Below are positions 5,834-7,335 of a stretch of 25,996 nucleotides of DNA, one piece after another. Within the stretch, counting starts at the first letter, position 1, and the number at the start of each line of letters is the position of its first letter. Under the pieces are notes generated by a model. That model did not search any database, was not told the DNA's origin, and was given only the letters and a program-made list of their open reading frames with translations. The position numbers were made by a program, and so were the translations under genes. The stretch comes from Escherichia coli (GTDB lineage: Bacteria; Pseudomonadota; Gammaproteobacteria; Enterobacterales; Enterobacteriaceae): NCBI RefSeq assembly GCF_003334315.1, contig NZ_QOWR01000064.1. One strand, given 5' to 3'.

Positions 5834-6664
5834 CTATTTACCAATATAATTCCATTCACCATTTTTTAATTCAAACAGTTCTGGAAGAGATGACGGTTGC
5901 AGAGTCATACGTTTGAGTGGTGCATTTTCATCACCCGGGATAACTTTATATCCCATTTTTGCATGGATCTCCGCGGTACCGGGATAGGCTTCTATACCAA
6001 TTATTGGGTCATTACCCAACTCAATATTAGCATTAAGTAATGCGGCAAGGGCGAATCCGGAAGAATTTGCCACCCCTGAGACAGTCATTATCTGATCAAT
6101 ATAGATATCAATCCTTGGCTGCTCATTGGTCCATCTTTTTGCCTGAGAAGCTGGAAGGGTTGAAATATATCCTATCGTGGTTCCGGCGTAACCTGGAACA
6201 TTGCAACCAGGGCCTAATGTTATTTCATGAACTGTATAGTTCTCAACAGGATAGGAAGGGCTCTTCATAAATAAATTTAGCCGTAATCCTTCTGCTAACT
6301 CTGTGGCAGCATGCGCCTTTTTACATATACCACCATATATATCGTCTAAAGCTGAGGTGATTTTCAAGTTTCGATAGAGCATACGTCCTGTTGTTGTAAT
6401 ACCATCGGATTCTCTGCATGTTTCTGTCACATAATTAAATGGCCAGTACTCTTTACTAATATCAAGCTTTCTAATTTCGACAACGCTTTTTCCATCGTAA
6501 TTATGGTTATTGCCACGAACAAGAGGCAGAAGATAGATATTTTCCGTATCCAGGCGTGCACGTTCATATTTACGTGTTAACTCATTGTCGACTTTTGGAT
6601 GATGAAGGAAGTGATTATTTATATAGAATTGGTTATTAGCGGCATTGCTTAATGGCATAGACAT
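5834..6664 (-). CDS. yjiC: YjiC-like protein of unknown function (276 aa)
   Basis: Long ORF, AT-rich by eye, convergent with uxuR; length and position match yjiC as I recall it in K-12. I recognise no domain with confidence. Confidence 0.75.
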   Translation of the reverse strand: MSMPLSNAANNQFYINNHFLHHPKVDNELTRKYERARLDTENIYLLPLVRGNNHNYDGKSVVEIRKLDISKEYWPFNYVTETCRESDGITTTGRMLYRNLKITSALDDIYGGICKKAHAATELAEGLRLNLFMKSPSYPVENYTVHEITLGPGCNVPGYAGTTIGYISTLPASQAKRWTNEQPRIDIYIDQIMTVSGVANSSGFALAALLNANIELGNDPIIGIEAYPGTAEIHAKMGYKVIPGDENAPLKRMTLQPSSLPELFELKNGEWNYIGK

Positions 6665-7120
6665 AATAGTTACCTTTTATGAGTATTTCACTGATGTTTA
6701 GAAAAATAGATAAATTTTTCTGTAGTAAAAGAGAAGTAAACAAATGACATGCATGTTTCTGTTGTAGTGATATCAACTCTACACAGTGATATTAAATGGT
6801 AGGAAACACTCTAAAGTATCAAAAAACGCTCATTTAAAATTATTTGCATGCAATTTAAAAGCATATCTTATTACTAATTGGAATTTGATGTTGCTATATT
6901 GAGGTCTATATTAATAATGCCTGTGAATGGTATTTTTGATGTATTTGATATGTTATCAATTTATATTATTTACAAACTAATTGTTTCAAATAATACATAG
7001 ATGATTATGCGGAAATAAATAATTTCCAACCGGAATTAAGTAGCGGCGGTGACAAGTATTTTCATCTACGTAACTATTCGGAATATTCAGAATATACTAG
7101 CGGTTTTTTTTTGAGTTTGA

Positions 7121-7158
7121 TGATTTTTATCAAATCATGACTTTTTTCCTGAAAAGTC
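7121..7158. promoter_or_regulatory. Two adjacent palindromes in the AT-rich yjiC-iraD intergenic region (candidate regulator sites)
   Basis: TGATTTTTATCAAATCA (7121-7137; TGATTT-N5-AAATCA) and GACTTTTTTCCTGAAAAGTC (7139-7158; GACTTTT-N6-AAAAGTC), about 180 bp upstream of iraD. Confidence 0.4.
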
Positions 7159-7335
7159 AGTAGATATTCATAGGCAAGTAAGGTTTTATACTTTGCTGAC
7201 AGGATTCAGGCCTGTCTCAGACTGACATGGATGTAATGAACAAAAGGGAATGGCTATGGAAAATGAGCATCAATACAGTGGTGCCCGGTGTTCAGGGCAA
7301 GCCGCATATGTTGCTAAACGTCAGGAGTGCGCAAA

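Follow-up and report, generated by a model that had tools for sequence, protein, structure and literature searches.

The AT-rich yjiC-iraD region of Escherichia coli: a largely known iraD control region, an old accessory module and two adjacent palindromes upstream of promoter P2

What is the markedly AT-rich DNA that separates the uxu genes from iraD in Escherichia coli, and do the two adjacent palindromes that it carries act as sites for a regulator? The question is raised by a stretch of 25,996 nucleotides from E. coli (the window, contig NZ_QOWR01000064.1), in which the gene order is uxuB, uxuR, yjiC (minus strand), a 671-bp spacer, idlP, iraD and hypT (minus strand); positions are collected in Table 1. 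A preliminary description of this DNA, made from its sequence alone, had proposed that yjiC and the spacer were horizontally acquired and are silenced by H-NS, that the palindromes may be regulator sites, and that the long leader could hide a small RNA or a small open reading frame (ORF). The control region of iraD is important because RpoS, the sigma factor of the general stress response, is stabilised by IraD when DNA has been damaged and when cells enter stationary phase. We conclude with good confidence that the locus consists of the E. coli orphan gene yjiC and a divergent, unusually long idlP-iraD control region, all parts of the region having been described before; that the palindromes are most likely upstream DNA of the iraD promoter P2, with a symmetry that is mostly incidental; and that the AT-rich module is old and specific to Escherichia. 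The AT-rich stretch is the well-studied iraD control region, already known and largely ordinary, and the palindrome pair is its single element without coverage in the literature consulted. Its promoters, leader peptides, CsrA coupling, DnaA and SspA genetics, HusR and H-NS have already been dissected, and the present check adds modestly to that work.

The palindrome pair and the upstream DNA of P2

The palindromes had been described as near-perfect. Both TGATTT-N5-AAATCA (7121-7137) and GACTTTT-N6-AAAAGTC (7139-7158) are in fact perfect, and each extends by one more pair per arm. Together they span -79 to -40 of P2, which is +202 to +241 of the transcript from the upstream promoter P1. Palindrome 1 overlaps two small dyads, TTTGAT-N7-ATCAAA (7116-7134) and TGAT-N4-ATCA (7121-7132).

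The evidence on the palindromes comes mainly from orthologues, taken from a K-12-like strain, two divergent E. coli-like lineages (L006 and L008), two E. albertii, E. coli LI60C3 and E69, Escherichia sp. E1V33 and E. whittamii; LI60C3, E69, E1V33 and E. whittamii represent haplotypes that lack yjiC. In the alignment of the palindromes (67 columns, 10 sequences, 6 of them distinct) none of the 14 pairs is altered on both sides, so that no compensatory change was seen, and 6 of the 14 depart through unpaired cells only, 3 of 6 in palindrome 1 and 3 of 8, the outer three, in palindrome 2. The alternative dyad TTTGAT-N7-ATCAAA is kept little better. What is kept is sequence, namely TTT.rTGA…TCAAA, the core CTTTT…AAAAG (a T-tract and an A-tract) and a block of 18 nt that includes the right arm of palindrome 2 and abuts the -35 position of P2. 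The core and the block are kept even in haplotypes without P1 and ytiD, which places the constraint at the level of DNA and P2 and not in ytiD coding or in the structure of the P1 RNA. Since the sequence is conserved and the dyad symmetry is not, the symmetry in the long, yjiC-bearing haplotype of E. coli appears mostly incidental, and the palindromes are most likely part of the AT-tract-rich DNA upstream of P2, the UP-element or activator zone of a promoter for which a -35 hexamer was looked for and no good match found. The proposal that they are regulator sites is not borne out, as the symmetry is lost in other Escherichia lineages and no known regulator motif was seen to fit them above chance, and experiments would be needed before they are taken for candidate operators. 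A CRP-like match with 3 mismatches at 7119-7134 was rejected as evidence because such sites occur at chance frequency (92 in the window, 90 expected); the resemblances of the palindromes to Fis, IHF, Fur and FNR-spacing sites were judged by eye only.

Several points weigh against this reading of the palindromes and of the region around them. Palindromes are modestly above chance in the spacer: with arms of at least 6 bp and loops of 3-8 nt there are 10 perfect calls, compared with 2.07 +/- 1.7 in 2000 dinucleotide-preserving shuffles (P = 0.003; the same palindrome called with different loop lengths is counted in both totals), and adjacent palindromes within 5 nt arise in 2% of shuffles (P = 0.02). 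Folded as RNA, palindrome 2 gives a hairpin of -8.4 kcal/mol (z = -4.6), unusually stable for its composition. The set of aligned sequences is small and holds few independent events, and in it one inner pair of TGAT-N4-ATCA covaries, the dyad becoming TGAC-N4-GTCA in the short haplotypes. A regulator that tolerates drift of its half-sites would also fit the pattern of loss. Furthermore, the transcription start sites of P1 and P2 and the H-NS occupancy originate from K-12 and not from this strain, and chromatin immunoprecipitation sequencing (ChIP-seq) of DnaA detected no binding at iraD, so that regulation by DnaA is disputed. The covariation itself was set aside as support for a dyad, being one probable event in a pair that is broken in E. 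albertii and E69.

The excess of palindromes has to be set beside the possibility, which we hold to be real though doubtful, that the pair is a pure by-product of low-complexity AT-rich sequence and has no function. Arms of just 7-8 bp made nearly entirely of A and T would be expected of such a by-product, and at least one palindrome with arms of at least 7 bp is found in 38% of shuffles, which makes a single palindrome with 7-bp arms unremarkable. Three overlapping dyads with different centres, at 7116-7138, are typical of a repetitive TGA/TCA/T-run sequence, and the absence of covariation points in the same direction. Against this stand the palindrome total and the adjacent pair, both above the shuffles, and the genus-wide conservation of the DNA that makes up the right arm of palindrome 2. 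This DNA is therefore functional at least in part.

That the palindromes are operators of a dimeric transcription factor controlling P2, for example in its LexA-independent induction by replication stress or in stationary phase, is in our opinion unlikely. Their place at -79 to -40 of a promoter without a -35 hexamer is typical of activator or repressor sites, palindromes are enriched, and the surroundings of the pair are better conserved between haplotypes of 72% identity than is the start of the P2 leader. The mechanism of the induction by azidothymidine (AZT) is incompletely explained, with DnaA binding unseen by ChIP-seq, and HusR, a factor of the LysR type, has its site just upstream. The loss of symmetry in E. 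albertii and in the short haplotypes, with breaks in both palindromes and no compensation, speaks against such operators, as do the chance frequency of CRP-like matches and the fact that no factor has been reported to bind here in the iraD literature consulted. The upstream promoter DNA of P2 remains the reading that we prefer to operators.

We think it very improbable that the palindromes work as hairpins in the P1 transcript, flanking the ytiD stop codon and affecting termination of ytiD, mRNA stability, processing or read-through into idlP-iraD: the 54-nt RNA does fold into two adjacent hairpins (-14.1 kcal/mol, z = -3.0), the second of them unusually stable for its composition, and the stop codon of ytiD is both the end of hairpin 1 and the start of hairpin 2, but the stability of hairpin 1 is only marginal (-3.9 kcal/mol, z = -0.9), there is no U-tract and thus no intrinsic terminator, no covariation and no Rfam match were found, the core persists in haplotypes without P1 and ytiD, there is no conservation of ytiD (its K-12 start codon is gone here, the frame is cut short in L008, and E. 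albertii has none), and mutation of its frame (ORF47) left iraD expression unchanged. A terminator scan of 5600-7500 returned one terminator-like site, at 5937-5954 inside yjiC, and none in the spacer.

Three further perfect or near-perfect palindromes were noted in the spacer, AGAAAAAT-N6-ATTTTTCT with 8-bp arms (6700-6721), TTGATA-TGT-TATCAA (6945-6959) and GGAAAT-N5-ATTTCC (7011-7027).

Age and origin of the AT-rich module

The AT-richness first judged by eye was confirmed by computation. The GC content is 0.396 in yjiC and 0.317 in the spacer, compared with 0.579 in uxuB, 0.536 in uxuR, 0.513 in hypT and 0.50 in the whole window, and the GC content at third codon positions (GC3) of yjiC is 0.318 versus 0.62-0.67 in the uxu genes. 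In a sliding-window calculation over the 26 kb, the twelve 300-nt windows of lowest GC all start within 6401-6951. The low-GC block runs from the uxuR stop codon (5694-5833, GC 0.35) to about 7198; within the spacer the GC content is 0.26 at 6665-6918, 0.289 at 6919-7198 and 0.482 at 7199-7335, the composition of the P2 leader (0.48) being normal. The long A/T runs that had been pointed out are also present, with a T9 run at 7104-7112, the longest homopolymer of the window, and four runs of A or T of 12-15 nt each.

The window is E. coli chromosome, since a 1701-bp query over the region matched 5403 of 5426 complete E. coli genomes, and the RefSeq annotation under the match reads yjiC (DUF2686, YjfZ/YjiC family), ytiD, idlP and iraD. 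The match covers at least 80% of the query in 4886 complete genomes, which carry the long form, whereas 491 match only at 60-80% in the identity bands of the search; the one such record inspected (H14) matched in the iraD-proximal part only. We infer the short form for about 491 of the 5426 complete genomes (about 9%). Neither E. whittamii nor Escherichia sp. E1V33 has the segment concerned, 1378 bp at 5694-7071. In its place the short haplotype has about 150 bp of unrelated AT-rich DNA (L003, 4851-5000), the junction sequences are without relation to each other, and homology between the two forms (72%) starts at 7072. The iraD allele that accompanies the short form is always divergent (75-78% amino-acid identity), and P1, the stationary-phase promoter, is wholly absent from short-form strains.

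In E. albertii, yjiC lies between uxuR and iraD and its product shares 61-63% amino-acid identity with YjiC of E. coli. The synteny implies that the yjiC module predates E. coli and is old within the genus. Judged by these comparisons, the segment with yjiC, P1, ytiC and ytiD is no recent insertion but an old accessory module that is specific to Escherichia and that about 9% of E. coli lack.

The proposal of horizontally acquired DNA silenced by H-NS is therefore only partly supported. What stands of it is that the DNA is AT-rich, restricted to Escherichia, absent from a minority of E. coli and bound by H-NS in K-12; what does not is the part contradicted by its synteny in E. albertii, by the lack of a mobile source and by its strong inducibility. 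Among the 78 published E. coli "promoter islands" is the DNA between yjiC and iraD, listed there as associated with predicted foreign genes and as H-NS-bound in K-12 data sets (Kahramanoglou, Oshima; PMC3661553). The high-affinity H-NS motif TCGWTWAATT, allowing at most 1 mismatch, has one site in the spacer (6707-6716, one mismatch), which is not above chance, and its total in the window is below expectation. The likeness to promoter islands (Panyukov & Ozoline 2013) is close in that the region is on their list, has a very low GC content and carries numerous promoter-like hexamers on both strands. The concept stresses transcriptional defectiveness, whereas two mapped, productive and highly inducible promoters lie here, and promoter-like sites in the spacer are no more numerous than in shuffles (7 vs 7.2).

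A stronger version, in which the region would be foreign DNA of recent acquisition, an island kept transcriptionally silent by H-NS, appears to us rather unlikely. It would account for a GC content of 0.35 next to flanks of 0.50-0.58, for a promoter island that is bound by H-NS and that several predictors mark as foreign, and for a family confined to Escherichia that shows presence/absence polymorphism and frequent IS1 insertions. The patchy distribution among close relatives is real, but neither a mobile vehicle nor a donor could be identified. A tblastn search for phages or plasmids that could be the source of yjiC gave no phage and nine "plasmid" matches, all of which are non-mobilizable, chromosome-sized records of 0.37-4.9 Mb, and no tRNA, integrase, repeat or integration-site signature was seen at the junctions in the ORF and annotation tables, no dedicated tRNA or tmRNA search having been made. 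The identical gene order in E. albertii, the functional and strongly inducible P1 with induced genes inside the segment, and a spacer that is far better conserved than yjiC also argue against recent acquisition and in favor of the old module.

Insertion sequences were met in the AT-rich spacer of two strains, 2018-11-3CC and T2, where IS1 has inserted independently at different points. One copy (L016, 1684-2381; window about 7010-7080) lies between P1 and P2 and the other (L017, 1395-2092; window about 6720-6800) between yjiC and P1. An internal stop codon makes yjiC a pseudogene in strain T2, and in strain 2017-01-4CC (H4) the annotation shows two IS1 transposases under the match and lists the DUF2686 gene twice.

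Variability and predicted fold of YjiC

Within this module yjiC stands out as a local divergence hotspot, and its product is hypervariable. The nucleotide identity of yjiC to the window is 94% in the K-12-like strain, 79% in L006 and 75% in L008, whereas in the same three strains uxuR is 96.5-100%, the P2 leader 98.5-100%, iraD 95-98% and the non-coding spacer 87-99% identical. The rate of synonymous substitution (dS) is about 0.5 in yjiC and 0.1-0.15 in uxuR, an allele dS of about five times that of the flanks, and the ratio of nonsynonymous to synonymous rates (dN/dS) is 0.3-0.7 versus 0.03. In the two closest comparisons (K-12-like, L006) dN/dS is 0.35-0.86 in residues 1-180 and about 0.1 in the C-terminal part. 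Several clusters of yjiC alleles that diverge by more than 10% have thousands of members each.

YjiC matches Pfam DUF2686 (PF10887) from end to end (E = 2.9e-146, with residues 1-276 aligned to model positions 1-285) and is 38% identical to YjfZ. The family was not found outside Escherichia/Shigella in searches of 5.8 billion word-indexed proteins and of 1.84 billion proteins with HMMER. The remote homology search with YjiC, carried out in NCBIfam, PADLOC, PHROGs and by phmmer and profile searches of the PDB, gave no sequence match outside DUF2686; for an acetyltransferase-family profile in particular, Pfam returned only DUF2686, NCBIfam none, and phmmer and hmmsearch against the PDB nothing below E = 0.09.

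In the predicted structure the C-terminal half is GNAT-like, the overall predicted local distance difference test score (pLDDT) being only 57.6. A candidate motif for the pyrophosphate of coenzyme A, Q/RxxGxG/A, is N200-S-S-G203-F-A205 and lies between predicted beta4 (187-194) and alpha3 (201-212); N200 and G203 are invariant in 7 sequences, with N in place of Q/R. The fold of YjiC, whose gene is an uncharacterised "biofilm" gene, is probably that of an acetyltransferase. Compared with GNAT N-acyltransferases, among them the tRNA-acetylating toxins KacT, TacT and AtaT, it has no detectable sequence similarity (Pfam, NCBIfam, PDB profiles and 1.8 billion representatives); it differs from them also by an extra, poorly modelled and hypervariable N-terminal part of about 100-140 residues, and by the absence of an antitoxin-like gene adjoining yjiC. 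A transposon insertion in yjiC has been reported to make an atypical enteropathogenic E. coli strain deficient in biofilm.

Two bolder ideas would be that YjiC is a working acyltransferase of the GNAT type, specific to Escherichia and with the tRNA-acetylating toxins as its nearest structural relatives, and that the palindrome pair binds the factor behind the LexA-independent induction of iraD by damage; we give these a small chance. If the enzyme were active, its hypervariable N-terminal region would reflect diversifying or balancing selection, and the module, with yjiC and iraD co-induced under replication stress from their shared AT-rich control region, would be a system of conflict or stress instead of a silent relic.

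A candidate promoter for yjiC was noted on the minus strand, TTGATA-16-AAAAAT (-35 at 6959-6954, -10 at 6937-6932). It would start at about 6925, face-to-face with P1 (start at 6919), and no mapped yjiC promoter was found in the literature consulted.

The iraD control region in this haplotype

The spacer of the window differs from that of the K-12-like strain by 6 single-nucleotide polymorphisms and 1 indel, and 7046-7335 are identical. The locus is the one studied in K-12 upstream of iraD (Merrikh 2009; Park 2017; Sass 2022), with a spacer of 671 bp instead of 672 bp. Published positions relative to the iraD start codon were converted with iraD ATG = 7336, and the starts at -417 (P1) and -137 (P2) described for the 672-bp upstream region (Sass, Ferrazzoli, Lovett; bioRxiv version) match. 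Sequence identity to K-12 is complete in the P1 core, in P2, in the four GGA sites and the DnaA box at -81, and in idlP with its ATGA overlap. The P1 hexamers, TTGATG-16-TATATT, were recovered independently by the promoter scan and end 7 nt before the published start. Transcripts that start within the spacer are known from K-12 and are not unannotated, P1 and P2 having both been published.

Table 1. Coordinates of the features of the yjiC-iraD region in the window
Feature	Position	Strand	Description
Long-haplotype-specific segment	5694-7071		1378 bp, GC 0.354; yjiC, P1, ytiC and most of ytiD
uxuR-yjiC convergent intergenic region	5694-5833		GC 0.35; hairpin AAGCGCAAGG...CCTTGCGCTT directly 3' of the uxuR stop codon
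yjiC	5834-6664	minus	276 aa, DUF2686; GC 0.396, GC3 0.318
yjiC-iraD spacer	6665-7335		671 bp, GC 0.317
Promoter P1	6885-6919	plus	-35 TTGATG 6885-6890, -10 TATATT 6907-6912, transcription start 6919 (-417; Sass et al.)
ytiC-type small ORF	6917-7000	plus	27 aa from ATG 6917 (16 aa from ATG 6950); hypothetical protein (PGAP) in a 100%-identical strain
ytiD frame (ORF47 of Park et al.)	6997-7140	plus	Stop codon TGA 7138-7140
HusR (YnfL) site CAGAATATACTAGCGG	7088-7103		Genomic SELEX (systematic evolution of ligands by exponential enrichment), PMC12844172 Table 1; overlaps palindrome TATTCGGAATAT/ATATTCAGAATA 7075-7094
Palindrome 1, ATGATTT-N5-AAATCAT	7120-7138		-79 to -61 of P2; within the last ytiD codons
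Palindrome 2, TGACTTTT-N6-AAAAGTCA	7138-7159		-61 to -40 of P2; begins at the ytiD stop codon
18-nt conserved block AAAAGTCAGTAGATATTC (AAAAGTCAGTRGATATTC)	7152-7169	plus	-47 to -30 of P2; 14/18 positions invariant in 10/10 Escherichia sequences
Promoter P2	7187-7199	plus	-10 TATACT 7187-7192, 7 nt before transcription start 7199 (-137; Sass et al.)
CsrA-binding part of the leader	7198-7260	plus	BS1 GGA 7202-7204, BS2 7224-7233, BS3 7246-7252, BS4 7258-7260
Proposed DnaA box -81, TTTTCCATA	7255-7263	minus	Sass et al.; recovered by pattern search
idlP (ORF27)	7256-7339	plus	27-aa iraD leader peptide; TGA stop codon overlaps iraD ATG (ATGA 7336-7339)
iraD	7336-7728	plus	130-aa anti-adapter, GPW_gp25/TssE-like fold family

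The difference from K-12 lies in the leader ORFs. A single G to A change at 6999 alters both ytiC and ytiD in this haplotype, 6997-7001 reading ACATAGATG in the window and ACATGGCTG in the K-12-like sequence: TGG of ytiC becomes TAG (6998-7000), which cuts short a frame that is 6 codons longer in the K-12-like strain, and the overlapping ATG of ytiD becomes ATA. Because the K-12 start codon is ATA here, ytiD probably has no functional start codon in the window. Its frame is still annotated as a hypothetical protein (PGAP) in the nearest relatives. By comparison, idlP is kept in all Escherichia haplotypes examined and corresponds to RefSeq WP_120795393.1 in DNA identical to the window over that stretch. 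The suspicion of small ORFs in the leader was therefore right as to their presence and wrong as to their novelty, ytiC, ytiD and idlP being published and annotated like the two promoters; a scan of the spacer for new small ORFs with a Shine-Dalgarno sequence gave nothing convincing beyond these three frames. As for an unannotated small RNA, no known family was recognised, since Rfam, searched at a permissive threshold over 5600-7800, returned two sub-threshold matches to eukaryotic small nucleolar RNAs only.

Three leader ORFs, ORF23, ORF47 and ORF27, are translated in K-12 (Park et al. 2017). The ytiC and ytiD ORFs are dispensable for iraD expression, and mutation of ORF47 had no effect (Park et al.). 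iraD is translated only through coupling to ORF27 (idlP), the stop codon of which overlaps the start of iraD, and CsrA, which protects four GGA sites (BS2 at -112 to -103, BS3 at -90 to -84, BS4 at -78/-77), has been demonstrated experimentally to bind and repress the identical K-12 sequence (Park et al. 2017). In the window, GGA at 7202-7204, 7229-7231, 7247-7249 and 7258-7260 coincides with the published positions of BS1-BS4. BS1 stands in the loop of a hairpin at the start of P2 transcripts, GACAGG-N7-CCTGTC (7198-7216), and BS4 overlaps the start of idlP. As in other bacterial cases of coupling through an upstream ORF or leader peptide, the stop codon of idlP overlaps the start codon of iraD, and a leader that sequesters the Shine-Dalgarno sequence has been described; we see no difference from the published case.

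The stress response expected of this leader has been documented. After AZT treatment, ytiC is induced 260-fold, ytiD 33-fold, idlP 18-fold, iraD 14-fold and yjiC 11-fold, independently of LexA. P1 is a sigma70 promoter and P2 is read by sigma70 or sigmaS (Park et al. 2017). If the published data are transferred to the window, transcription from P1 (6919) would depend on sigma70 and ppGpp and be induced in late log phase, transcription from P2 (7199), with sigma70 or sigmaS, would be active in all phases, and both would be induced by replication stress without LexA. DnaA-ATP and SspA would modulate the iraD promoters, as genetic data indicate, HusR would bind at 7088-7103, as it does in vitro, and H-NS would occupy the AT-rich DNA. 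Transcripts from P1 would carry the dispensable ytiC and ytiD and all transcripts would carry idlP, on which CsrA would repress translation at the four GGA sites, iraD being translated only by coupling to idlP at ATGA.

Repression by DnaA-ATP through the -81 box is supported by genetics and by electrophoretic mobility shift assays (Sass et al.). A search with the DnaA consensus at 1 mismatch or fewer recovered the published box, but such sites occur at chance frequency. Since the idlP start codon and CsrA BS4 both share bases with the box, mutations there could also act post-transcriptionally.

The product of iraD matches the NCBIfam IraD equivalog (298 bits), with its start at 7336. It also resembles the type VI secretion baseplate protein TssE (TIGR03357) at 44.7 bits, below the cutoff of 53.2, in agreement with the Pfam GPW_gp25 assignment in related loci. 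At the other end of the AT-rich block, a published report describes UxuT, a 3' untranslated region RNA that stems from the terminator region of uxuR (PMC10016265).

Two observations concern published assays and records. The quantitative PCR primers, probe and Sanger primers published for "YjfZ" (PMC11057252) match yjiC with 0-1 mismatches (6280-6393 and 5885-5904), and the same oligonucleotides had no match with 4 mismatches or fewer at the real yjfZ locus of the K-12-like strain. Judging from these matches, the "yjfZ" water-quality assay appears to target yjiC, which bears on its sensitivity, since strains with the short haplotype are without yjiC. Finally, a 605-nt contig labelled Bacillus coahuilensis m4-4 (L012, NZ_ABFU01000118.1) contains the exact 23-nt idlP/iraD junction of Escherichia and is probably a contaminant in that assembly.

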